From the IMG/VR virus record IMGVR_UViG_2851955134_000002: a stretch of DNA of 38,621 nt. The stretch is one strand, 5' to 3'. Shown here piece after piece: positions 4,356 through 35,446 of the stretch. Position 1 is the first letter of the stretch. The number at the start of each line of letters is the position of its first letter. The notes under the pieces are model-generated. The model saw only the letters and a list, made by a program, of their open reading frames with translations, searched no databases and was not told the DNA's origin. The stretch comes from a virus (taxonomy: Duplodnaviria; Heunggongvirae; Uroviricota; Caudoviricetes). Position numbers and translations under genes: made by a program.

Positions 4356-4677
4356 GAAACCAGAACATGCACACACAAAAAAACCGCTTGCCATGCCGCA
4401 ATCAGTCAGGTTACATTTCCGCTGCACCTCACAAAACGGGTGCCGGGTTTCGCAGCCTGCTGACTACACAAGCGCACAACCGCGCCAGCGGTTTTTTTGT
4501 GCGTACTGTATTGCCACGTTTTTTTCGCGTCAGAATTATGGCGGGGCGTACGGGGCCGACTTCGGTCGGGCCGGGTTCTTGTGTAGCCGGTACTGCGAAC
4601 CTCGTACGTCTCGCCACCCACAGTTTCGCAGCTCTGGATGGTGAGTTTTCACAACTTACTACACAAGGGGCCACACC

Positions 4678-8283: not shown

Positions 8284-9243
8284 ATGAAAATTTGTATCGA
8301 CGACGGCTCCACCAACATCAAGCTGGCATGGACTGAGAACGGCGAACGCCGCAACGCCATCAGCCCGAACAGCTTCAAGTCGGAATGGTCTGCGCCGTTC
8401 GGTGGCACGCAGCCCGCGAACTACATGCTTGATGGCGTGCGCTATGGTTTTGATCCGGTCAGCGATCGCTTTGTCCAGACGACCGACACGCAATACCAAT
8501 ACAGCGATGTGAATGTCATTGCCATTCATCACGCGCTGGTCAAATCAGGCATCACGCCACAGGAGGTGGATGTGGTTGTCACCCTGCCACTGAGCGAGTA
8601 TTTCGACACAAACGCACAGCCGGACATGGCCAACATCAACCGCAAAAAAGCGAACGTTATGCGCCCGGTGGAGTACCAGAACGGCGAAGCATTCACTATC
8701 CGTAACGTGCGGGTTATGCCTGAATCCATTCCGGCTGGCTTTAAGGCACTGGCTGACATGAGTCCATTTGAATCTCTGCTGATTGTGGATTTAGGCGGAA
8801 CCACGCTGGATGTGGCAAAGGTTCAGGGGCAACTGGCAGGCATCAGCCAGGTATTTTGCGATCCACACGTAGGCGTTTCACTGATGACCGATGCCGTACT
8901 GTCGGTGATGGCCACTAACGGTATGCGTACCAGTCACCACATCGCCAATACCATTATCGAACATCGCCATGATGAAGCCTGGCTGCGCCAGCACATCCAC
9001 AATGTCGCGCATTACGACAGCCTGATGGCGGTTATTCGTGAAAAGGAAGAAACTCTGAAACAACGCGTGATCCGCGCGCTGGCGGGGTTTTCGGGGTACG
9101 GTCGGGTGATGGTTGTCGGTGGAGGGGCGGAGATTGTGGCTCCGGCGGTACATGACGCTTACGGCCTCAACGCAAACATTCACACAACACCGGAGCCACA
9201 GTTTGCCCTGGTTAATGGACTCCATGACATGGACAGGGAGTGA
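8284..9243 (+). CDS. parM: ParM/StbA-like actin-family partition ATPase
   Basis: N-terminus MKICIDDGSTNIKLAW...ISPNSFK...YQYSDVNVIAIHHAL...VMPESIPAGF...IVDLGGTTLD...MVVGGGAE closely tracks plasmid R1 ParM as I recall it, at similar length (319 aa). Confidence 0.85.
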   Translation: MKICIDDGSTNIKLAWTENGERRNAISPNSFKSEWSAPFGGTQPANYMLDGVRYGFDPVSDRFVQTTDTQYQYSDVNVIAIHHALVKSGITPQEVDVVVTLPLSEYFDTNAQPDMANINRKKANVMRPVEYQNGEAFTIRNVRVMPESIPAGFKALADMSPFESLLIVDLGGTTLDVAKVQGQLAGISQVFCDPHVGVSLMTDAVLSVMATNGMRTSHHIANTIIEHRHDEAWLRQHIHNVAHYDSLMAVIREKEETLKQRVIRALAGFSGYGRVMVVGGGAEIVAPAVHDAYGLNANIHTTPEPQFALVNGLHDMDRE

Positions 9244-9559: not shown

Positions 9560-9937
9560 CATCAGGGCGTATTCGCCCTGCCACCAATCCCATAACATAA
9601 AGAACGGGGTGCAAATCACTATGCACCCCGTTCCAATACAAACCATCAGAAGATCTACACATCTTTCTCAAATGGCCAAGTAATCGAGCTGGTTCAGGAA
9701 TAAGCATGCTGCCAACACAAGTGAAGGAGATAAAACTGTAGAACTGATCAATCGTTGGAAACAAGTATTGACAATATGTTCGAGTAACCCAACTGGATAG
9801 ATTTTATGCTGATTATCCATACAGTAAAAAAGTGAGGATACTCTTTGAATAACGCCAGCAAGAGTGGTAACATTAGGCACTGATTTTCATCAATGCAGTT
9901 ACCAGCTTACACAAGCTTATGTTTTATTGGGGGTTTT

Positions 9938-11020
9938 ATGGTAAACGTGAGGGAGGATGAACTTTTCAAACTCATCGAGCAAGGCATCAAAGGCAACGCA
10001 AATGCATTTACACTCCTATGCAGAAAGATGATTAACAACATCCGTAAAAATGATGAGGCTTTAGCTTCTAAGCTGGCTTCGTTAATTGCTGAGGGAACAG
10101 TATTACGTGGGGCATCTAGTAAGGCTCCTATGCCTGTGGATGGAGACTCCAGACGAAACCTTTTGCAGGAAACATCTGTCAACGCAATTGTTGAAGAACC
10201 TGTATGGAATACGGATATCTCAAAGAAGCTGGAGTCAATTGTTAACGAAAGAGAGAATGCTGTTTCTTTGTTCAAAGCTGGTCTTGAACCTGTGAAGACG
10301 GTTTTACTTTCTGGCCCGCCAGGCGTAGGCAAAACAATGTCCGCACATTGGCTTGCTGCAAAGTTAAATTTACCTCTTTTAACATTGGATCTCTCATCTG
10401 TAATGAGTTCTCTTTTGGGAAAAACAGGTAATAATATTAAATCCGTTATGGATTATGCCAAAGAGAAACCATGTGTCCTTTTGCTTGATGAATTTGATGC
10501 TGTTGCAAAAAGACGTGATGATGACAGGGACGTTGGAGAATTAAAACGTTTAGTTACTGTACTCCTACAGACCATAGATGAGTGGCCAGCGACCTCGCTT
10601 CTTGTTGCTGCGACTAATCACCCTGATATCTTAGATCCGGCTGTTTGGCGTCGATTTGAGCACATCCTTAAATTTAATATGCCATCAGTAGAACTGATAG
10701 ATAGATATTTAGTCAATCATAATATTGAACCTGAACTATCTAAAAAACTTGCACCATTATTAGATGGCATGTCCTTTGCCATCATTAACCGTATTTTGAA
10801 TTTCTCCAAAAAGAATGAGGTACTTAGAAATATTCCATTTGAAAGCTCATTAATAGAAGCCGTAATTACGGAGAGGGTTTCATTGGATGAATTTAGCGAT
10901 AATGATCTCAATATAATTAAATATCATTTTGACGGTTTTTCAAATAGGAAGATAGCTGAATTAGTTGGTGTTTCACATCCAACAATCGCGAATAAATTAC
11001 AAAAGTGGGGGATTAAATGA
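9938..11020 (+). CDS. AAA+ ATPase with C-terminal helix-turn-helix; first gene of candidate defence pair
   Basis: Walker A (LLSGPPGVGKT), Walker B (VLLLDEFD), sensor-1 (LLVAATN), arginine-finger region (AVWRRFE) and a C-terminal HTH (SNRKIAELVGVSHPTIANKL); AT-rich; start at ATG 9938 (GGGGG upstream) preferred over the track's 9893. Confidence 0.8.
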   Translation: MVNVREDELFKLIEQGIKGNANAFTLLCRKMINNIRKNDEALASKLASLIAEGTVLRGASSKAPMPVDGDSRRNLLQETSVNAIVEEPVWNTDISKKLESIVNERENAVSLFKAGLEPVKTVLLSGPPGVGKTMSAHWLAAKLNLPLLTLDLSSVMSSLLGKTGNNIKSVMDYAKEKPCVLLLDEFDAVAKRRDDDRDVGELKRLVTVLLQTIDEWPATSLLVAATNHPDILDPAVWRRFEHILKFNMPSVELIDRYLVNHNIEPELSKKLAPLLDGMSFAIINRILNFSKKNEVLRNIPFESSLIEAVITERVSLDEFSDNDLNIIKYHFDGFSNRKIAELVGVSHPTIANKLQKWGIK

Positions 11021-13221
11021 TGGAAAGGAACTTACTTTTAGGTAACGGTCATGTTCTGACAAAAAAGGAACCTTTGCCTAAAGGAAGGGATGGTAAGCGC
11101 TATCCCTATACTCTTGAAGAAGTAAGGGAGCATTTAAACCCAGAGATTGATACTTTACTCTCACGCTTTCGCAGTTTGGATGATGCGGCTAAGCCAAGGG
11201 GGGAGAGTGTATTCAATTTAACTTTACACCCAGCGTTTTTGGGTAAAAGCTACTTTCCGGAAGGATTACTTAGAGCGACAGGTTTACGGGATGTCGGTAG
11301 CCGTCAGGTAATCATTCGCCCACGGAAAGCGGCACGTCAGTGCGATCAGAATAAGGACTTAGTAACGGCGCAACTGTTTGTTAGCGGTGATGATGATGCC
11401 GTTATAAGATTTAAGGAAATTTTAAATTCCCCTACAGCTCCGAAGGGCGTACAAAAGGATTTGATCGAAATTGAAAGTGTTAGCTTTTTTGAAGGAAAAG
11501 AGAGAGCACGCAATTTTGAGCATGCGAAAAGTGATTTGATAAAATTTGAAGTGGTTCTTCATGCTGGGGTTGAAGACGATGATATCGTTAAAGCCTATAT
11601 TAGCTATGCGGCACAATATGGTGTCTCTGTTGATTACAAAAGTAGAATCCAAGTTGGTGGACTGACTTTCATCGTTGCACACGCGCGACCTGAAGATATG
11701 AAAAAAACACTCGATTTTTCATTAATCCGCGTTGTGCGGCCGATGCCGTCTCTCAGGTGTACTCAGCCGAACATTGTCAGAAAGTTATCTAATATAGTTA
11801 CACCGGAGCTCCCTAATTCTAAAGCTGTTCTTGAATCCGAACGTATTGCCATTTTTGATGGTGGCTTGGGGACAGCTGACTTGAGTAATTGGGTTACGGA
11901 ATACGTGTATCCAGACACCAAAGAAACAAGCGGATTATTATTGCAGCACGGTAATGAAGTAACATCCACTTTCTTATTCGGACGTGTCGAGGAAAATGCA
12001 CCTTCTTTTAAAAGACCGTTTATGAATGTAGATCATTATAGAGTTCTTTCACCGACATCAGGTGACAATGGCAATTGGGATTTATTTGATGTCCTTAAGA
12101 AAATACAGTCCGTTCTTGATAGTGGTGACTATAAGTTCGCTAATCTAAGTATTGGTCCTCATCTTCCAATTGGTGATGATGAGGTTCATGTATGGACTGC
12201 TGTTTTAGACCAAATCTGTGCTAAGCATGGGATATTACTTACTGTTGCTGTTGGGAATGATGGCAATGAGGACGGTGATGCAGCGAGAATACAACCTCCT
12301 TCCGATATGGTAAACGCGCTAGCGATTGGTGCTGCTGATCGTAGCGGTGAAAAATGGGGGCGGGCACCATATAGCTGTATTGGCCCAGGCAGAAGCCCCG
12401 GATTCGTTAAACCTGATGGTGTTATTTTTGGTGGAAGCGACGACGAGCCTTTTTACACTTACAACCCTCTGCTTGGTTCTATAGTTGGAGTTCAAGGAAC
12501 CAGTTATGCCTCTCCATTAGCATTGAGAACGGCCGCTGGAGTTGCGGCTCTATCAGGAACTCCATTGAACACCATTGCATTGAAAGCGTTGCTTGTTCAT
12601 CATGCTGAAACATCAAGAAAATATTCGCGTGAACATATCGGTTGGGGACGGTTTAGTGAGGATCCTAACGTTTTAATCGATTGTCCAAATGATACTGCTA
12701 CAGTAATTTACTATGGTTCATTAGCAAAAAATAAATATTTAAGGGCACCGATCCCATTCCCTGATGTTCCATTTGACGAAGCATTTGAGCTTACCGCTAC
12801 TTTATGCATTCAAACCCCAGTAGATCCTGAACATTCAGTAAACTATACAAGGGCCGGTATGCAGGTAACTTTCCGCCCAAGATTCGGCCTTGACGATACC
12901 GATACAGATGATTTCTTTGGTCAAAAAAGCCAGTATAAGACTGAAAGGGAGTGTAGGAGTGAAGGTCATAAGTGGGAAACTTGTTTGCACAGAAGCAAAA
13001 AGTTCAGTACTGATACATTATTAAGCGATCCAGTTTTTGATATACGGTATCATGCCCGAGATTCTTCGCGCCATGTTAAGGGAGTTTCAGCCCCTGATAT
13101 GCAATATGCGATGGTAATAAGCGTAAGGGTAAAAGACTTTGATTTATATAATGTTATTCGCCAGCGATATACAATTCTGAATCCTATTCAACTGCGCACA
13201 CAAATTTCTCTCGACACGTAA
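11017..13221 (+). CDS. S8 subtilisin-like serine protease with about 270-aa N-terminal domain of unknown function; second gene of candidate defence pair
   Basis: Subtilase motifs in the canonical D-H-S order (IAIFDGGLG, LQHGNEVTS, oxyanion-hole VAVGNDG, GTSYASP); start overlaps the ATPase stop (ATGA), implying coupled translation. Confidence 0.8.
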   Translation: MMERNLLLGNGHVLTKKEPLPKGRDGKRYPYTLEEVREHLNPEIDTLLSRFRSLDDAAKPRGESVFNLTLHPAFLGKSYFPEGLLRATGLRDVGSRQVIIRPRKAARQCDQNKDLVTAQLFVSGDDDAVIRFKEILNSPTAPKGVQKDLIEIESVSFFEGKERARNFEHAKSDLIKFEVVLHAGVEDDDIVKAYISYAAQYGVSVDYKSRIQVGGLTFIVAHARPEDMKKTLDFSLIRVVRPMPSLRCTQPNIVRKLSNIVTPELPNSKAVLESERIAIFDGGLGTADLSNWVTEYVYPDTKETSGLLLQHGNEVTSTFLFGRVEENAPSFKRPFMNVDHYRVLSPTSGDNGNWDLFDVLKKIQSVLDSGDYKFANLSIGPHLPIGDDEVHVWTAVLDQICAKHGILLTVAVGNDGNEDGDAARIQPPSDMVNALAIGAADRSGEKWGRAPYSCIGPGRSPGFVKPDGVIFGGSDDEPFYTYNPLLGSIVGVQGTSYASPLALRTAAGVAALSGTPLNTIALKALLVHHAETSRKYSREHIGWGRFSEDPNVLIDCPNDTATVIYYGSLAKNKYLRAPIPFPDVPFDEAFELTATLCIQTPVDPEHSVNYTRAGMQVTFRPRFGLDDTDTDDFFGQKSQYKTERECRSEGHKWETCLHRSKKFSTDTLLSDPVFDIRYHARDSSRHVKGVSAPDMQYAMVISVRVKDFDLYNVIRQRYTILNPIQLRTQISLDT

Positions 13222-18606: not shown

Positions 18607-19434
18607 ATGCTGACACCGGCACAGGCGCATTTTCAGCGCACGATGGCACAACGCGCCGGACTGATCGATGACAGTCAGTCACAGACGGTGCGCACGGCTC
18701 ACGAACAAATCCTGCACCGCCTGCGACTGGCACAGGCGCGACTGAAAGGCATTCAGTCAAAGGCGGCGAAAGCGGAACTGAAAAAGACACTGCTGCCGGA
18801 TTTTTCCGGCTGGATTGACGGCACGCTGGAGAGCGACAGCGGACGCCAGGATGAGGTGATTGTCACCCTCATGGTCTGGGCCGTTGACTGTGGTGATTTG
18901 CCGCTGGCGCTGCGTATCGGTGAGTACGTGGTGCGTCATAACCTCAGCACACCGGACAGCTTCGGGCGCGATGCCGCCACGCTGCTGACAGAGGAAATCT
19001 GTAACCCGGTGCTGACGCTGGCAGGCACGGACCAGGACGCGGATTTGTCCGGATACATCGCCCCGCTGGATACCCTCTGGAAAATCGTCACCAACCGGGA
19101 TATGCCGGACGAGGTTCGCGCCAAACTCTGCAAGGCGTGCGCCTTTTCCCGCCGTGGTCTGACCGATGCGGACAGTATGGCTTCATCATTGAAACTGCTG
19201 CGCGAAGCGATGCACCTGAACCCGAACGCGGGCGTGAAACGCGAGATTGCCACGCTGTCCCGCGCACTGAAAAAGCTGACCAGCAGTGATGGCGGGGAGA
19301 ACAACGCGGAAAACAAAAGCACCGCGAAAACCGCCACCACGAAAACCGCCACCACGAAAACCGTGACGAAAAAGGCAGGCAAAAAGAGCGCCACAAAAGC
19401 CACTGCCACACGGAAAAGCAAAAAATCCGCGTGA
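18607..19434 (+). CDS. M: Terminase small subunit (P2 gpM-like)
   Basis: 275 aa after N with an AAGAGGAG RBS; ends in a Lys/Thr/Ala-rich low-complexity tail (TAKTATTKTATTKTVTKK). Confidence 0.75.
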   Translation: MLTPAQAHFQRTMAQRAGLIDDSQSQTVRTAHEQILHRLRLAQARLKGIQSKAAKAELKKTLLPDFSGWIDGTLESDSGRQDEVIVTLMVWAVDCGDLPLALRIGEYVVRHNLSTPDSFGRDAATLLTEEICNPVLTLAGTDQDADLSGYIAPLDTLWKIVTNRDMPDEVRAKLCKACAFSRRGLTDADSMASSLKLLREAMHLNPNAGVKREIATLSRALKKLTSSDGGENNAENKSTAKTATTKTATTKTVTKKAGKKSATKATATRKSKKSA

Positions 19435-27661: not shown

Positions 27662-27734
27662 AATCACGCCACCACCTCGTTATCTGTATGAGGTGGTGGC
27701 GTCAGGTTAAGGGAATGCGTTCAACGACGACGAT

Positions 27735-27839
27735 TTGTCTTTAAGCGTATTCAGTGATTCCCCACACAGATGCAGGCTGAAGTTTCTCCCACATATCCTC
27801 ATCACACCATTGAAAGCCTGCAGGAAACTCAATTCTTTC
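27735..27839 (-). pseudogene. Decayed 3' fragment of a gpU-like tail gene
   Basis: About 105 bp aligning by eye at roughly 80% identity with the 3' end of the intact U gene (28518-28620), same orientation; the reading frame is broken. Confidence 0.6.
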
Positions 27840-28160
27840 AGGCAAGCTTCAGAAAATTATAAATTTCAACAGATACAATTAAAATGATTTACAACGAAAT
27901 CCCCTGCTGCCGGAGGCAAAAGAGGGGATCAGCATCTGGCAATCTGAGTTGTTGCCTGGCACTATCAGTGATGAATACAGATGAAGCCTGGCTGCGTGGA
28001 TTGAATACATTAAAGAACTTCAGCAGGTGACTTTCACTTCCGTGAAGGACAAAGATTATTACAATGCGCTGGTATGGCCTGAATCGCCATCAAAGGGGGT
28101 TTTACAGAAGGCATAATATATTTATAATCCCGCAGCGTTATACACATGCAAACATTCTTT

Positions 28161-28186
28161 GCCCGCCCCGTGCGGGCTTTTTTTTT
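28161..28186 (+). terminator. Rho-independent terminator in the AT-rich intergenic block
   Basis: GCCCGC-CCCGT-GCGGGC hairpin followed by nine T. Confidence 0.55.
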
Positions 28187-28349
28187 ACCACAAAGATACA
28201 GTAACAGACAAAATTGTAATCAGAGCAACAAAATCGCAGGAAACATTTTCATCGATGACGATAATAATTAAAAATATTGTTTCAATAACGCCAACCCAAT
28301 ATAATCCCTTCCGGAACATAGAACTTTAAATCTTCACACAATGCATGTT

Positions 28350-28372
28350 GCCCTCTTTATGAGGGCTTTTTT
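28350..28372 (+). terminator. Rho-independent terminator in the AT-rich intergenic block
   Basis: GCCCTC-TTTAT-GAGGGC hairpin followed by TTTTTT. Confidence 0.5.
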
Positions 28373-28495
28373 ATTTCCCGAATATCACCATTGCCTTCAT
28401 CGGGCGATTTATATATAGTGAGAATGTATTGACAACATTTGCTTTTCTTCCATAACGGGTATAAGGGAGTGTTTTTTACACTCCCTTCTTTTTAT

Positions 28496-28954
28496 TCAGA
28501 ATGCCGCTGTCGCCATTTTGTCTTTAAGCGTGTTCAGTAATTCACCCGCAGAAGCTGACTGAAGTTTCTCCCTCATATCCTCATCACACCGCTGAAAACT
28601 GACAGAAAACTCAATCTTTTTTGCCTTTCCGTAACGATCCAGTTCGGAGCGGGTGGTCTGTAATCCCGTAATCACGTACATTCCGTAAATCTGCCCCGTG
28701 CCATCAATCAGCGGCCAGGGACATCCGGTGTAGGCCTGAGTGTTCAGTAGTGTCAGTGACACCTCACCGCCGGTAATTTCGGGATACAACATGCCGGACA
28801 GCGTGATCTGATCATCACCTGCACCAATATACTGCCAGGCCGCAGAGCGGTTAATGCGCTCATTTTTCACATGTCGCCATGTTTTGCTCTGCTGGATCTG
28901 CTGATGCGGCAGTGTCTTCAGTTCAAACACAAACATGCCAAAAATCATCATCAT
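28496..28954 (-). CDS. U: Tail protein U (P2 gpU-like)
   Basis: Start at the MMM triplet (MMMIFGMFVFEL...) with an AAGGAG RBS, as at the N-terminus of P2 U; the track ORF begins on an upstream GTG. Confidence 0.8.
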   Translation of the reverse strand: MMMIFGMFVFELKTLPHQQIQQSKTWRHVKNERINRSAAWQYIGAGDDQITLSGMLYPEITGGEVSLTLLNTQAYTGCPWPLIDGTGQIYGMYVITGLQTTRSELDRYGKAKKIEFSVSFQRCDEDMREKLQSASAGELLNTLKDKMATAAF

Positions 28955-28967
28955 AATTGCGTCTCCT

Positions 28968-31900
28968 TTAGTCCCTGTCACGGAAGCTGTTCATGCCTGT
29001 ACGCGCCTGTCTGCGCATCTCTTCGCGGACAGCCTCACCAACCAGTGTTGCCAGTTCACGCGGATTCTGTGTGTTGACGTTGTGCAGATGCACATGTATC
29101 TCACCGGAAAATGCCGCAGCCTGCGTTTGTGGCGCGGTTTCTTTTTTGACGGACTCCGGTCGCAGCGGTGGACGGATAACCTCCGCAACAGGAACAGATA
29201 AAGCCACATCTCCACCCGGGCCGTTTACAGCCTCACGCACGCGCTGAATACCGGCAACCAGCTCTGCATTTGCCTCGTTGTGCTGCGGCTGTGACAGCGT
29301 GGACACCTGACGGGCCACGCTCACCACTGGCGCAGGCACATTCACTGCCGGCATCAGAACGTTAACCACGGGGGAAGGCAAAGCACCCTCTCCACCCGGA
29401 CTGTTCACCGCCTCATGCACACGCTGAATACCGGCAACCAGTTCTGCATTTGCCTCGTTGTGCTGCGGCTGTGACAGCGTGGACACCTGACGGGCCACGC
29501 TCACCACTGGCGCAGGCACATTCACTGCCGGCATCAGAACGTTAACCACGGGGGAAGGCAAAGCCCCCTCTCCACCCGAACTGTTCACCGCCTCATGCAC
29601 ACGCTGAATACCGGCAACCAGTTCTGTATTTTCCTCGTTGTGCTGCGGCTGTGACAGCGTGGACACCTGACGGGCCACGCTCACCACTGGCGCAGGCACA
29701 TTCACTGCCGGCATCAGAACGTTAACCACGGGGGAAGGCAAAGCACCCTCTCCACCCGGACTGTTCACCGCCTCATGCACACGCTGAATACCGGCAACCA
29801 GCTCTGCATTTGCCTCGTTGTGCTGCGGCTGTGACAGCGTGGACACCTGACGGGCCACGCTCACCACTGGCGCAGGCACATTCACTGCCGGCATCAGAAC
29901 GTTAACCACGGGGGAAGGCAAAGCCCCCTCTCCACCCGAACTGTTCACCGCCTCATGCACACGCTGAATACCGGCAACCAGTTCTGTATTTTCCTCGTTG
30001 TGCTGCGGCTGTGACAGCGTGGACACCTGACGGGCCACGCTCACCACTGGCGCAGGCACATTCACTGCCGGCATCAGAACGTTAACCACGGGGGAAGGCA
30101 AAGCACCCTCTCCACCCGGACTGTTCACCGCCTCATGCACACGCTGAATACCGGCAACCAGTTCTGCATTTGCCTCGTTGTGCTGCGGCTGTGACAGCGT
30201 GGACACCTGACGGGCCACACTCACCACTGGCGCAGGAATATTCACGGCCGGAACGGGTGAAACAGTCTGTCTTCCGGTGAGTTTCTGCCAGAGCGTTGTC
30301 AGCGCATCCGCCACTCCTCCGCCCGCCGATACCGCCTGCACTGTCCGGATAACCTGCGGCGCTTTCCACTCGCCGTGAATGATTTCGGGCGCTGGCAGAT
30401 TTTTGAAAACAATATCGCCGGGGCCAGTACGTTTTTTGGTTTCCTCAAGAAGCCCGCCTGTATTGCTGGCGGTTTTCTGTATCCCCTGCCGGAACCATGC
30501 CTCATCCAGCGGGGATTTGCTGCCGGGTTTGCCGACCGGATTGTCCGCCGTTCCCCTCACCTCTCCGGGAACAGCAGGGGCAGGTTTATTGTCACCGTTG
30601 TTTTCCGCTGCATCTGATGACCACGACCATGTTTTCTGCACCATTTTTTTCTGTGCAGGATCCCACTCCCACACAACCGGCGCTTTTTGTGTGGCCTGTT
30701 TTGCGGCACTCTCCTGGAGTTTTTGTGTCTCCTTCTGTGCCTCTTTGATGCCGTCCGGGATGACACCCAGCCACTTCAGCACGGTACCGAGACCATCAAG
30801 GAGCAGCGTCAGCGGCCCCAGCACAATGTTCTGAATGACCCACCCCAGCGTTTTGCCGAACGACTCCCCGGCACTGGTGCATTTGTCGAGCGTCTCTTTT
30901 GAGGCGTTCGCAGGTTCAAGCAGGCGGGTGAACCACTCCCACACAGCTTTAATGCCGTCGCCAATCAGCCCGAACACCGGAGCCAGCGATGCAAAGGCTT
31001 CCCGCAGCGGTTGCAGCGCCTCCCACACTCCGGCAAAAAAGCCGGAAAAAAACGCGCTGATCTGATCCCAGCATCTCCACACCAGAACCGCGCCGCCCAC
31101 CAGGGCGGCAACAATCAGCCCGACCGGGCTGAACAGCGCCCCCAGTGCGCCCCCCAGTACCGACACCGCCCCTGTGACCAGTCCCCACAGGGAAGACAAT
31201 CCCGTCAGGCGCAGCGCCAGCGCGGACACAAGCCGGACAGCCCCACCAATGCCACCGCCCCCCGTCAGCAGCCCCAGCCCCAGTTGCAGTTTTGCCAGTG
31301 GCCCCGCAATCAGCCCGAGCGTCAGTGACAGCGCACCGAATGTGGAAGACAGCGCCAGAACACTCCCGCCCGCCAGTACCAGCACCCTGACCAGCGCCTG
31401 ATGCTCACCGACCCATTCGCGCATCCGGCTCACCCACGCGCTCACCGTCTGAACCAGACCGCGCAAATCCTCCGTCACTGTACCGAAGATGTCCGTGCGT
31501 AGCCCTGAGAACGCGCCACTCAGCGCCTGAACATCGCCGGAAAGATTACCGCGCAGCGTCTGCCCCATGCGGTCTGCCACGCCGCTGACATCACCCAGGT
31601 TGTCACGGACATCGGCCAGCGCCTTTAAGAACTGCGGGATCTGGTCAACGGAGAGGTCTTCAACGGGTGTGCCGAACAGCGCAATGGCCGTGTTCGCCCG
31701 CTCTGCCGGGTCACGGATGGCCAGCAGTGCACGGGCGGTCACCTGCATCGCCTGACGTGCGTTGCTGCCCCCCTGTGCAATGGCAGCAGACACCCGTTCG
31801 GCATTCAGGCCGAGTGTCTCATACGCTGAGACACTGGATTTCGACATATCCGAACCCCGGATGCTGAACTCCTTCACGGCATCGCCGGTTTTATCCAGCG

Positions 31901-33011
31901 CAAACTTGCCCTGCTTCGCCATCTCAACCAGCAGGCTCATTGTCTCGCTGCCGGTGAAGCCCATGTTGCGGAAGTGGGTGGAATACTCATGCAGAATTTC
32001 CGGCAGTTCATCGCGCATTTCAGCGGACATGCGCTGCATCCCTGCCGTCATCAGGTTGGTGGCCTCGTCACTGCTGGCGGCCAGCCCGTTCTTCATCATG
32101 ATGGCTGCAGCCTGAATGCTCTGCGGCACATCAACACCAAAGACGGTCCGCATGTCCAGCGCGCGACGACTGATGCGCTCCAGTTCCCGGTCGCCGGTGT
32201 CGCCCAGCGCACCGAGCGTGCTGCGTACCGCACTCACGGCCTCCGCAGCACCGGCAAAATCAGCGAGACCGTCAGCCTGTATGTTACGGATGATGTGAGT
32301 GTAACGTGCGCCATCCTCTGCGCCTTCCCCCGAACCGGCTGCGATAACCGCGCCGTGCTGTTCGAATTCCATCGCCGGAGCCATCATGCGCTGCGCCGCA
32401 TACAGGCCACCTGTACCCGCCGCCATCGCCACAGCCCCTGTGTTGCGCAGTTTTTCCGCCTGAGCCTTCGCGGCCTCATAGCGGTTCTGTGCCTGCGTCA
32501 CGCGAGCCAGCACCTGCCGTTCGCGCTCGAGCTGCTCGTTGTACTGCTGTGTGCGGCGAACGGCACTTTCGATGGTCCGGCTGCTACCGGAAAGCAGAAT
32601 GCCGTGTCTGCGCATTTCCCCTGCCGCCGCCTGAAGTTTTTCGCGTTCGCGCGTGCGCAGCTCGTTCAGGCGCTCAAGACGTGCAGACAGCGCCGTCATC
32701 ATCTCCCGCTGCTTTTCAGAGAGGGTGTTGCCGTCCTGCTCTGCCTTTCGCAGCCCGGCGAGCCTCTGCTCCGCGCGGGCAATCTGTTCGCGATATTTAC
32801 TGAGATTTCCGGCGGCACGATCGAACACCTTCGACTGCCTGTCGAGCGCCTGTATGTTGTTCTGCGTCTTCTGAAGGGATTCAGTGAGAGCGCCCACCTG
32901 ACGGCGGGCGTTTTCGGTCGGGCGTGTCAGCCGGTCGATTGCGCCAAAGCTGACACGAATATCAAGGGATTTCACTGTTGCGGACTCCGCTGCGTTGCGC
33001 CGCCCGCTCAC
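28968..33011 (-). CDS. T: Tail tape-measure protein (P2 gpT-like), expanded by tandem repeats
   Basis: 1347 aa between E and U; coiled-coil N-terminal part, glycine-rich TM-like central segments and six tandem 60-aa repeats near the C-terminus; GTG start. Confidence 0.85.
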   Translation of the reverse strand: MSGRRNAAESATVKSLDIRVSFGAIDRLTRPTENARRQVGALTESLQKTQNNIQALDRQSKVFDRAAGNLSKYREQIARAEQRLAGLRKAEQDGNTLSEKQREMMTALSARLERLNELRTREREKLQAAAGEMRRHGILLSGSSRTIESAVRRTQQYNEQLERERQVLARVTQAQNRYEAAKAQAEKLRNTGAVAMAAGTGGLYAAQRMMAPAMEFEQHGAVIAAGSGEGAEDGARYTHIIRNIQADGLADFAGAAEAVSAVRSTLGALGDTGDRELERISRRALDMRTVFGVDVPQSIQAAAIMMKNGLAASSDEATNLMTAGMQRMSAEMRDELPEILHEYSTHFRNMGFTGSETMSLLVEMAKQGKFALDKTGDAVKEFSIRGSDMSKSSVSAYETLGLNAERVSAAIAQGGSNARQAMQVTARALLAIRDPAERANTAIALFGTPVEDLSVDQIPQFLKALADVRDNLGDVSGVADRMGQTLRGNLSGDVQALSGAFSGLRTDIFGTVTEDLRGLVQTVSAWVSRMREWVGEHQALVRVLVLAGGSVLALSSTFGALSLTLGLIAGPLAKLQLGLGLLTGGGGIGGAVRLVSALALRLTGLSSLWGLVTGAVSVLGGALGALFSPVGLIVAALVGGAVLVWRCWDQISAFFSGFFAGVWEALQPLREAFASLAPVFGLIGDGIKAVWEWFTRLLEPANASKETLDKCTSAGESFGKTLGWVIQNIVLGPLTLLLDGLGTVLKWLGVIPDGIKEAQKETQKLQESAAKQATQKAPVVWEWDPAQKKMVQKTWSWSSDAAENNGDNKPAPAVPGEVRGTADNPVGKPGSKSPLDEAWFRQGIQKTASNTGGLLEETKKRTGPGDIVFKNLPAPEIIHGEWKAPQVIRTVQAVSAGGGVADALTTLWQKLTGRQTVSPVPAVNIPAPVVSVARQVSTLSQPQHNEANAELVAGIQRVHEAVNSPGGEGALPSPVVNVLMPAVNVPAPVVSVARQVSTLSQPQHNEENTELVAGIQRVHEAVNSSGGEGALPSPVVNVLMPAVNVPAPVVSVARQVSTLSQPQHNEANAELVAGIQRVHEAVNSPGGEGALPSPVVNVLMPAVNVPAPVVSVARQVSTLSQPQHNEENTELVAGIQRVHEAVNSSGGEGALPSPVVNVLMPAVNVPAPVVSVARQVSTLSQPQHNEANAELVAGIQRVHEAVNSPGGEGALPSPVVNVLMPAVNVPAPVVSVARQVSTLSQPQHNEANAELVAGIQRVREAVNGPGGDVALSVPVAEVIRPPLRPESVKKETAPQTQAAAFSGEIHVHLHNVNTQNPRELATLVGEAVREEMRRQARTGMNSFRDRD
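29211..30235 (-). repeat. In-frame tandem repeat inside the tape-measure gene: about 5.7 copies of a 180-bp unit
   Basis: Units at 29341, 29521, 29701, 29881 and 30061 are nearly identical and alternate between two variants (protein NEANAELV...NSPGGEG versus NEENTELV...NSSGGEG), so the true unit is 360 bp in about three copies. Confidence 0.9.
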
Positions 33012-33542
33012 GCCAGCTCATCACCTCGACGAGAGGCATTGAGAATATCTCGCCGGGCGACCAGTTAAACACGACTGCTATATCAGCGACCAGTTCTTCA
33101 ACGTTGTCGAACTTCGCCAGCGTGATTACGCTTCCATCACCGCCACGGACGGTTTCGCAGACTCCGTGGGAGCAAAAAAATTCGCAGCCATAGTCGCCAG
33201 CGCCACGAAATCACCGGTGGACAGTGACTGAATTTCTGCCAGTTTCAGGCGTGGTGCGGTCACGCGCGAAAGCAGCGTCATCATCGGGTCCGTTTTGAGG
33301 TTCAGCACCTCAATCAGCGACAGCCCGCGCAACGAGCCTGCCTGACGGATTTCCTCGCCAATCTCCACGTAGTCAATAACGCGTTCGCCACGCACCACCG
33401 GGCAGGATAACTTCACCCCCGTTTTTTCCTCTGCGGCTTCTGCGTTATCCGCAGTGTTTTCCTCTGCCACATCGATGTTTTCAGTGGTGGTGTCACCTGC
33501 GACGATTTCGCTGTTCATGATGTCATCTTTCTTTGCTGCCAT
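32962..33542 (-). CDS. E: Tail assembly chaperone E with predicted -1 frameshift extension E' (slippery T TTT TTT at 33172-33180)
   Basis: The E ORF (33126-33542) ends soon after a TTTTTTT run; the -1 frame is open from that site to a stop at 32962-32964, overlapping the T start, as in P2 E/E'. Confidence 0.6.
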
Positions 33543-33587: not shown

Positions 33588-34103
33588 TCAGTTCAGACCG
33601 AGCGCCGAACTCACGCGGTCACCAAAGACGTTCTGGCCGTCTTTTTTGTAGATGAAGTTCAGCAGGTCGATTTCTGTCACATCGCTGTCATCCACCGACT
33701 CCTTGTAGTAGGTGTTTTTGACGGCGAAGGTGTACTGTGTGGTGTCGCCCTGTTTGGTTTCGCCACGGTCGATTTCCGTGATGCGTCCGCGCATCTCCAC
33801 CTCAAGGAGCTGACTTTCCTCACCATCGGTGAACAGCTCACCCACAAAGCGCAGCGCCACTTCGTTAATGTCAGTGGCGTATTCCTGGAGCAACTCTTTT
33901 TCAACACCGCCGGTGGTGAATGAGGCATCCAGTGCGCTGTCATCCAGTCCGAGGTCAATATGCACCGCACCCAGCATCCCGCCACCGCGATAGGCTTCGG
34001 TTTTTCGGGTCAGTTTAGGCAGAGTGACGCCTGTCACCGTGCCGATTTTGTTTTTGCCGTTCACAAACAGCGTGAACTGGCGAACGTAACGTGGTACAGC
34101 CAT
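33588..34103 (-). CDS. FII: Tail tube protein (P2 gpFII-like)
   Basis: 171 aa, ATG start directly after the sheath gene stop; size and position match P2 FII. Confidence 0.85.
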   Translation of the reverse strand: MAVPRYVRQFTLFVNGKNKIGTVTGVTLPKLTRKTEAYRGGGMLGAVHIDLGLDDSALDASFTTGGVEKELLQEYATDINEVALRFVGELFTDGEESQLLEVEMRGRITEIDRGETKQGDTTQYTFAVKNTYYKESVDDSDVTEIDLLNFIYKKDGQNVFGDRVSSALGLN

Positions 34104-35285
34104 TTACGCACCTCCCAGCGTTGCAAAAGCGGAGTCGAAATACTCATCCGTGAAGGTCTGGTACAGCGTCAGGTCTTCCATCGGCGGCACTGGTGTGTAC
34201 TTGTAGCGGATACGCACGCGCCCCTGACGTAAATCCGTCGTGCCGTTGTCCAGCACGTCATACCAGCACTCCGCACCGATAAGTTTTCCGGCGGTGACCA
34301 GGGCATTGAGTTTTGCGCGGATGGCGCTAATCACGTCCTTCACGTTCGCCGGGGTCAGCGGTTCGTCAATGGTTTCGAACTGTGCTTCGGCGATGGTATC
34401 TGCCAGAATCTGCGCTGTGCGCGTGTACACCTCAAAGATGTAGTCGCTGGTTTCGGCGGTACGGTTCCCCCAGAAGCGGAAGCCGTTACGGCGAATAATC
34501 GTGGTGATTTCCTTGTTGTTCAGGTTGTTCGCATCACTGTCTTCGGCCTGCAACGACCAGAACACCTGCTGCGACATACCGAGCACATTTTTCAGCGCCA
34601 CGTTGGACAGTGACTTATGCCAGCCCTGCTCACTGTCAATCCGCGCACGCAACCCGCACGCATACGCCGCTGCCGGAAACGTTTCGTTATTTCCGCTCAC
34701 CGGGTTGTAGGCAATGAAGTCAGGCCACAGCAGCATCAGCTCACGCGCGGAGAACTTAGCGCGGTAAGTGATTGCCTCCGCCATCGTGTCACAGCCGTTA
34801 CATCCGGCGTACACAAAGGCGCGGAGCTTGTCCGCAATGACGCACAGGGCAGATGTGACAGCTTCGGTATCAAGGCCGGGAGCCGCCAGAATACGCGGGC
34901 GGTAACCAATGCTCTCATCCTGTTCGGCAACCAGCAGGGCATACATGCCCGTGTAGCTGCCGTCAGCCTGCGAGCCACCAATAACAAGCTGATCCTGTGT
35001 CTCACCTTCCTCTCCGGCTTCTGCCACACGCACCACGATAACCTTCGGGCTGGTCTGGTCGGAAATCGCCTTGAGCGTTTTGTACAGCGTGCCTGTTGTG
35101 CCTGCCTTACCCAACACATTCGCCACGCGGGTGATCAGTACGGGCTTGTTTAACGGGAACGCGTCGCTGTCTGCATCGTCCGCCGTGGCCACGATACCGA
35201 TGACACTGGAATCAATGTCATTAATCGCGGTCACGAGGTCGGTGTTTTCTTTGACGCGTGCGCCGTGAAAGCGTGTTTCACTCAT
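34104..35285 (-). CDS. FI: Tail sheath protein (P2 gpFI-like)
   Basis: 393 aa from the ATG with AGGAGG RBS; the TADDAD..FPLNKPVLIT N-terminal region resembles P2 FI as I recall it. Confidence 0.9.
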   Translation of the reverse strand: MSETRFHGARVKENTDLVTAINDIDSSVIGIVATADDADSDAFPLNKPVLITRVANVLGKAGTTGTLYKTLKAISDQTSPKVIVVRVAEAGEEGETQDQLVIGGSQADGSYTGMYALLVAEQDESIGYRPRILAAPGLDTEAVTSALCVIADKLRAFVYAGCNGCDTMAEAITYRAKFSARELMLLWPDFIAYNPVSGNNETFPAAAYACGLRARIDSEQGWHKSLSNVALKNVLGMSQQVFWSLQAEDSDANNLNNKEITTIIRRNGFRFWGNRTAETSDYIFEVYTRTAQILADTIAEAQFETIDEPLTPANVKDVISAIRAKLNALVTAGKLIGAECWYDVLDNGTTDLRQGRVRIRYKYTPVPPMEDLTLYQTFTDEYFDSAFATLGGA

Positions 35286-35446
35286 GAGCACCTCCTGGTG
35301 TTATTTGTGGTGCTATCCTCCCGAAAAACGCCACGACATTCACGCGCCGCCCCTTCTCGCCGCTCTCCTACAACATGCGCGGCTCGCGGTGTATTTCGCG
35401 TGTGTGGAATGATTTGCAGGACGAAGACACAGACGGAGAAAGCGGG

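Follow-up and report, generated by a model that had tools for sequence, protein, structure and literature searches.

The 38,621-nucleotide window analyzed here (IMG/VR virus record IMGVR_UViG_2851955134_000002, Caudoviricetes) carries a P2-like Escherichia coli prophage whose tail tape-measure gene, gpT, contains six tandem in-frame units of 180 bp. The array is a real and recent in-frame expansion within gpT, polymorphic in copy number between related prophages. The best explanation, which we hold with moderate confidence, is that it was generated by recombination or slippage and that it lengthens the molecular ruler and with it the contractile tail.

The tandem array in gpT

The gpT gene lies on the minus strand at 28968..32975 and encodes a protein of 1335 amino acids (aa). 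The longest open reading frame (ORF) in the ORF list spans 28968-33011 with an upstream GTG at 33011; the start used here, 36 nt further in at 32975, is taken from the RefSeq annotation of homologues. The translated product is identical to WP_249940373.1, which is recorded on a 5.21-Mb E. coli contig. Profile searches recovered matches to PF10145 (PhageMin_Tail) over residues 255-447 (62.1 bits against a cut-off of 33.2), to TIGR01760 (tape_meas_TP901; 30.8 bits against 28.8) and to phrog_28, annotated as 'tail length tape measure protein' (E=8e-114). Together with the gpE-like and gpU-like genes that flank it, 3' of the sheath and tube genes, these matches bear out the identification of the gene as a tape measure in an earlier note made from the sequence alone.

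In the whole window Tandem Repeats Finder detects just two arrays, and the one in gpT spans 29209-30251 with a period of 180, 5.8 copies, 96% matches and a score of 1946. A repeat search likewise recovered five 300-nt copies in register at a spacing of 180 nt, 95-100% identical to each other; a repeat of such length and identity is far beyond chance. Dissection in the coding frame places six units of 60 aa at 29172..30251 on the minus strand, corresponding to residues 909-1268 of 1335. The earlier note had located the array at 29211-30235, which is correct as to its existence but gives ends that are off by a few tens of bases and omits that it is read from the minus strand; its placement of the repeats in frame within the C-terminal third of gpT stands. 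Across the 1080 nt of the array the tape-measure frame contains no stop codons, while the other five frames contain 6-23.

In the coding direction the units follow the order A' B A B A A'', namely U1 (A', 30072..30251), U2 (B, 29892-30071), U3 (A, 29712-29891), U4 (B, 29532-29711), U5 (A, 29352-29531) and U6 (A'', 29172-29351). The two principal variants are told apart by EANAE...SP in A and EENTE...SS in B, and differ at codons 27 (A/E), 29 (A/T), 45 (P/S) and 49; the first three differences alter the amino acid and the last is synonymous. U1 is distinguished by an isoleucine at codon 5, which serves as a marker of the 5' end of the array. The alternation of two variants described in the earlier note therefore applies to units 2-5 and not to the array as a whole, and its statement that the copies are close to 100% identical similarly holds for U1-U5, which show 0-8 pairwise differences per 180 nt, but not for U6, with 25-30 differences in all. 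The first ~110 nt of U6 match the repeat and the last ~70 nt diverge; this 3' part is the ancestral distal end of the unit. Within the array U2 matches U4 at every one of the 180 nt, and a single nucleotide separates U3 from U5, so that U2-U3 and U4-U5 constitute a 360-bp higher-order duplicate and the youngest event is a duplication of the 360-bp B-A pair. Scans for Rfam families and tRNAs found no match in or near the array, and no Chi site (GCTGGTGG) was seen in the unit by eye, no formal search for it having been made.

Copy number among related prophages

A megablast search with gpT against 5,426 complete E. coli genomes returned nine with a match over at least 73% of the gene. Six of these loci (L001-L006) were fetched and translated, and in the other three the match span has the size seen in the one-copy loci. 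The comparison of gpT length across related prophages that the earlier note had proposed accordingly gives a series of 6, 5, 3, 3 and 1 copies with lengths of 1016-1335 aa. Compared with the six copies and 1335 aa of the window, strain SWHEFF_58 (L001) has five copies and a gpT of 1275 aa; TUM9803 (L002) has three copies and 1158 aa; SCU-172 (L003) has three copies (60+58+58 aa) and 1154 aa; and strains 135 (L004) and 2-1 (L005) each retain one degenerate copy of ~45 aa, in proteins of 1022 and 1016 aa respectively. Strain no107 (L006, NZ_CP075374.1, 3037-6106) also has one degenerate copy, in a gpT that is frameshifted and annotated as two coding sequences (CDS), so that decay is under way in at least one prophage of the lineage.

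Outside the array, gpT is 99.45% identical to that of SWHEFF_58 and 94.6-97% identical to those of the other relatives. The units of SWHEFF_58 reproduce U1, U3, U4 and U5 of the window exactly and U6 with one synonymous change, so the two arrays differ by exactly one B unit, U2, which is absent from SWHEFF_58. More generally, orthology between lineages holds for the first and the last unit, and the internal units are particular to each lineage. U1 corresponds to the first unit of SWHEFF_58 (0 differences) and of TUM9803 (6 differences), and U6 to the last unit in SWHEFF_58, TUM9803, SCU-172 and a further locus, L007. The internal units of the three-copy arrays are older, with 13-17 differences between units, and the pattern as a whole points to a recent internal expansion in the lineage of the window and SWHEFF_58. 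That the expansion is recent, as the earlier note had proposed, is upheld by the identical units and by the nearly identical allele, one unit apart, in another complete genome.

The proteins that would build the tail around this ruler vary little over the same series. The sheath retains 389-393 of 393 identical residues across all copy numbers. The tube protein is identical at 169-170 of 171 positions in SWHEFF_58, SCU-172 and strains 135 and 2-1, with a divergent version in TUM9803 (144/171). The gpE-like chaperone is more variable, with 133-138 of 138 identical residues in SWHEFF_58 and strains 135 and 2-1, and 99-105 of 127 in TUM9803 and SCU-172.

With gpT as the query, megablast matched none of 50,697 phage records; tblastn against phages recovered the flanks alone, in Xuanwuvirus and Klebsiella phages, and the unit in none of them; and a scan of the species representatives of GTDB for the unit found none. 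A comparable scan of IMG/VR yielded one contig with two copies and one with a single copy. A protein search with the C-terminal 517 aa mostly returned 'partial' fragments, along with unrelated tape measures that match over the last ~75 residues only. In that search the full-length repeat-bearing proteins sit inside 90% clusters with one-copy representatives, and the copy-number series given above is thus not a full census. A more distant relative, the 371-aa partial E. coli tape measure P0001, which is 73% identical over the aligned part, contains two diverged copies of the unit, one complete at ~64 aa and a second, shorter one at its end (PAVNVPAPVVNVARQVSTLPQPRNAANTELTASIRRVHEAVN...). Duplication of this linker segment has thus also taken place in a second sub-lineage.

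Tail length and competing explanations

The array is situated in a distinctive part of the protein. Alignment of the C-terminal regions, with a pattern search in relatives, identified two invariant blocks, GPGDIVFK (30402..30425, minus strand) at the proximal boundary and GEIHVH (29088..29105, minus strand; extended as GEIHVHLHNV) at the distal boundary, between which lies a Pro/Ala/Val-rich linker of variable length. From the start of GEIHVH to the C-terminus there is a constant segment of 45 residues that holds a predicted helix. The linker measures 440 aa in the window. Among the E. coli relatives (L001-L008) it has lengths of 380, 256-260, 196 and 121-124 aa, and phage P88 (L009) has one of 86 aa. 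Of 28 species-representative loci fetched (Enterobacterales and one Vagococcus record), 14 allowed both blocks to be measured and gave 70-95 aa. Hence, the array is an expansion of the most length-variable segment of the protein, adjoining its C-terminal anchor. In the tape measure of the myophage Mu only the last 17 residues are ordered, docked with the hub and spike, and the tube lumen is filled by the remainder of the protein (PMC11915804). By analogy, the 45-residue segment probably anchors gpT in the baseplate hub.

These observations show that a 180-bp piece of the linker between GPGDIVFK and GEIHVH was amplified, most likely through slippage during replication or unequal homologous recombination among the copies. 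Steps of one unit (180 bp) and of two units (360 bp) are both visible, the outcome being the 1, 3, 5 and 6 copies found in finished genomes of otherwise near-identical prophages. As the tape measure is expected to fill the tube lumen from hub to terminator, halting polymerization of tube and sheath, each additional 60-aa unit should lengthen the ruler and hence the tail. Such an effect has precedents in other phages. Deletion of repeats from the tape measure of TP901-1 shortens its tail linearly at 0.145 nm per residue (PMC5099701), and tail length is likewise altered by in-frame lengthening or shortening of lambda gpH (Katsura & Hendrix 1984, as cited in PMC13585406) and by duplications and deletions in T4 gp29 (Abuladze 1994, as cited in PMC13585406). 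For calibration, the tail of phage P88 measures 137-140 nm (PMC5285337), which with its 935-aa tape measure corresponds to 0.147-0.15 nm per residue. At this rate each unit would add ~9 nm, or ~2.3 rings of tube and sheath, and the 1016-aa and 1335-aa alleles would be predicted to give tails of ~150 nm and ~200 nm, respectively. The expectation from these analogies is that tail length probably differs between the one-, three-, five- and six-copy prophages.

Several points weigh against the proposed lengthening. The 60-aa unit (PAVNVPAPVVSVARQVSTLSQPQHNEANAELVAGIQRVHEAVNSPGGEGALPSPVVNVLM) contains no Phe, Trp or Tyr, and the array as a whole is 10.8% Pro and 20% Val, with a longest Pro-free stretch of 22-29 residues, compared with 1.3% Pro in the N-terminal 540 residues of gpT. 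Being Pro-rich with only short Pro-free stretches, the unit is not one continuous α-helix, and the conversion of 0.15 nm per residue may be inapplicable to a segment of such composition. Even in P2 itself, with 815 aa and a tail of about 135 nm, the ratio is not exactly 0.15 nm per residue. Furthermore, the array is bounded by two invariant blocks near the hub end, and if both dock at the baseplate it could loop out instead of extending along the tube. A single-sequence AlphaFold2 model of the C-terminal 517 aa has a mean pLDDT (predicted local distance difference test score) of 40.9; it displays short strands and a helix of 12-22 residues per unit at this low confidence, and only the C-terminal helix reaches 60-79. 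The model was considered as an arbiter between a helical and an extended unit and judged unusable at this score.

The leading rival to a longer tail accepts a real, polymorphic array but denies it any effect on tail length, taking it for a flexible or compacted Pro/Val-rich spacer close to the hub-anchored C-terminus. Such a spacer might act only after ejection, for example by reaching across the periplasm, or have no function. It accords with the non-helical composition of the unit and with the location of the array between invariant blocks in the most length-variable part of the protein. It also accords with the lack of a recognizable fold or family: a single unit matched no Pfam family at E<=10, the array as a whole yielded only summed sub-threshold scores against Pfam and NCBIfam with no individual stretch passing, and a PDB sequence search with the unit gave no matches, suggesting that the unit is without a recognizable described domain in these three collections. 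However, internal in-frame deletions or duplications shifted tail length approximately in proportion in every tape measure examined by experiment, those of lambda, T4 and TP901-1 (PMC5099701; the first two as cited in PMC13585406), and three chains each with 360 extra residues would have to be housed in a narrow lumen, which in Mu is filled by the tape measure. On balance, we regard a spacer without influence on length as rather unlikely, though it deserves more weight than any of the other alternatives.

A second alternative accepts the array and holds that the six copies of the window are an assembly error, the true length in the source strain being different. The U2-U3/U4-U5 duplicate is a near-perfect 360-bp repeat, longer than typical short reads, and draft or MEGAHIT assemblies of essentially the same prophage (among them L038-L042) are shorter or end inside the array. 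Specifically, a 1095-aa form (P0127) that consists of A'+A'' only is found on 12 draft or MEGAHIT (k141) contigs; it agrees with the window protein at each of the 908 residues that precede the array, and its tail is identical. The DNA of these contigs upstream of the array differs from that of the window by 1-3 nt in 5724, and the downstream DNA of two of them (L038 and L040) by 1 nt in 3204. Every one of the contigs lacks exactly 720 bp, the length of four units. As A'+A'' is the shortest path of a de Bruijn graph through the repeat, the two-copy forms are probably assembly collapses, with a true two-copy allele as the less probable option. 'Partial' proteins of the same allele stop at or inside the array (P0005, a cluster of 105 sequences; P0129, 937 aa; P0133, 962 aa), and many 'partial tape measure' records of the lineage thus appear to be assembly products. 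The suspicion in the earlier note that the array is prone to collapse is hence well founded, in that drafts of the same prophage break within it or keep only its two end units. As the array breaks or collapses short-read assemblies, the tape-measure lengths of this lineage in public draft genomes and the corresponding 'partial' annotations are untrustworthy, and copy number is reliable in long-read genomes only. The count in the window itself is nevertheless backed by the exact 1335-aa protein on the 5.21-Mb, chromosome-scale contig; by the independent finished genome of SWHEFF_58, in which these units recur in identical order with a single one missing; and by internal landmarks, namely the A/B markers and a synonymous site at codon 30, in a frame that is intact throughout. 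An error in the copy number of the window is therefore improbable.

Finally, one might regard the prophage as defective and the array as neutral slippage within a gene in decay that matters to no particle. This view might draw on the frameshift in strain no107 and on the occurrence of the unit in no isolated phage of the INPHARED collection, but we consider it highly improbable given the intact 4-kb ORF, length changes that are without exception divisible by three (180 nt; in SCU-172 and L007, 174 nt), the open P2-type structural, replication and regulatory gene set and the conserved flanking tail proteins.

Prophage context and relationship to known systems

The tail genes around gpT are arranged on the minus strand in the order sheath (34104-35291; PF04984/PF17482 and PHROG matches), tube (33588-34103; PF04985 and PHROG matches), gpE-like chaperone (33126-33542; phrog_103), gpT and, directly 3' of it, a gpU-like tail protein (28496..28981; PF06995, E=3.7e-40), and RefSeq gives the same order in the relatives. 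With gpD (PF05954) and Ogr (PF04606), both encoded on the opposite strand to the tail genes, these families identify a P2-like (Peduoviridae) contractile tail module. Open ORFs for an integrase, a repressor-like helix-turn-helix protein, a gpA-like replication protein, the portal, both terminase subunits, the capsid and a fiber are also present in the window, and the nearest isolated phages by tblastn are members of Xuanwuvirus (Peduoviridae) such as P88. Judged from its gene content, this is a complete-looking, apparently intact P2-like E. coli prophage of the Xuanwuvirus type.

Several other features of the window were observed. Between the small fiber-associated ORFs and gpU lies a stretch of ~830 bp (27662-28495) without an ORF of at least 90 aa. 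Its counterpart is unannotated in SWHEFF_58, contains a short 'tail fiber assembly protein' remnant in TUM9803, and in phage P88 encodes a DNA invertase and alternative fiber genes; it may represent a decayed invertible fiber segment. A two-gene IetAS-type anti-phage defense cassette occupies 9893-13221 on the plus strand and comprises IetA, a 375-aa AAA ATPase (PADLOC, E=2.9e-89), and IetS, a 734-aa subtilase-family protease (PADLOC, E=5e-41; PF00082). It lies between the genes for the gpA-like replication protein and the portal, which we take to be a known defense-cargo position in P2-like phages, and has a GC content of 0.405 against ~0.58-0.60 in the neighboring phage genes. Just 3' of the gpA-like gene (8284-9243, plus strand) is a gene for a ParM/StbA-type actin-like segregation protein (PF06406, E=1.8e-82; PF21523), which is unusual in an integrated P2-like prophage. 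In the early region, at 4424-4621 on the plus strand, two adjacent Rfam matches exceed the gathering score, one to isrK at 64.1 bits and the other to C4 antisense RNA at 83.2 bits, a pair that resembles the c4-antirepressor immunity module of the P1/P7 type within a P2-like prophage. The second tandem array of the window is small (19320-19363, 15 nt x 2.9, CACCACGAAAACCGC, 96% matches) and lies at the 3' end of the small-terminase ORF (18607-19434).

In-frame tandem repeats in tape measures that vary in number between relatives have been described in TP901-1 (PMC5099701) and as 11-residue units by Belcaid et al. 2011 (PMC3271669), and the array in gpT shares both properties with them. Those units are, however, 11 residues long, old, degenerate, marked by periodic Phe/Trp and located in the central helical part of siphophage proteins, whereas the unit in the window is 60 residues long, free of aromatic residues, Pro/Val-rich and up to 100% identical in DNA, and lies beside the C-terminal anchor in a contractile-tailed P2-like phage. 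With its period of 60 residues (180 nt) and lack of Phe, Trp and Tyr, it therefore falls outside the class of 11-residue, aromatic-marked repeats, though by analogy it may work as a length module in a like manner. The resizing of lambda gpH and T4 gp29, as these are cited in the survey, is also in-frame, and T4 extends the rule to contractile tails. Those proteins are laboratory constructs, while the E. coli prophage series of 1, 3, 5 and 6 units is natural, with a predicted effect on the tail.

The closest isolated counterpart is phage P88 (KP063541), which shares the gene arrangement of gpD on the opposite strand followed by sheath, tube, E, E', T and U, as well as the C-terminal helix and both invariant blocks, GPGDIVFK and GEIHVHLHNV. 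It differs in that its 86-aa linker is without repeats, against 440 aa with six units in the window, and only 22% of the C-terminal query aligns with it, at 58% identity. A recent survey of tandem repeats and homorepeats by Moreno-Rodriguez et al. 2026 (PMC13585406) counts tandem repeats among the sources of length variation in tape measures, and also reports that myovirus-type tape measures are characteristically without tandem repeats, so that the array described here is uncommon for a phage with a contractile tail. Thus, repeat-driven variation in tape-measure length is already known, as is the relation of such repeats to the length of the tail (PMC3271669, PMC5099701, PMC13585406), and what is new here is an example in a P2-like myophage prophage.

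A further and more speculative proposal, to which we attach little probability, is that the array behaves as a contingency-like locus, in which recombination in 180-bp steps would maintain a standing series of tail lengths from ~150 to 200 nm, tuning the penetration of the tube through capsule, O-antigen and periplasm across E. coli hosts. Were this the case, the one-, three-, five- and six-copy prophages would be a natural experiment on tail length and penetration depth in P2-like phages. If, as in the explanation we favor, tail length follows copy number, these prophages would constitute a natural, near-isogenic allelic series in which the ruler varies from 1016 to 1335 aa while sheath and tube remain nearly constant. 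Such a series could be used to study length measurement in P2-type contractile tails, and to establish whether a non-helical, Pro/Val-rich segment counts in the ruler.

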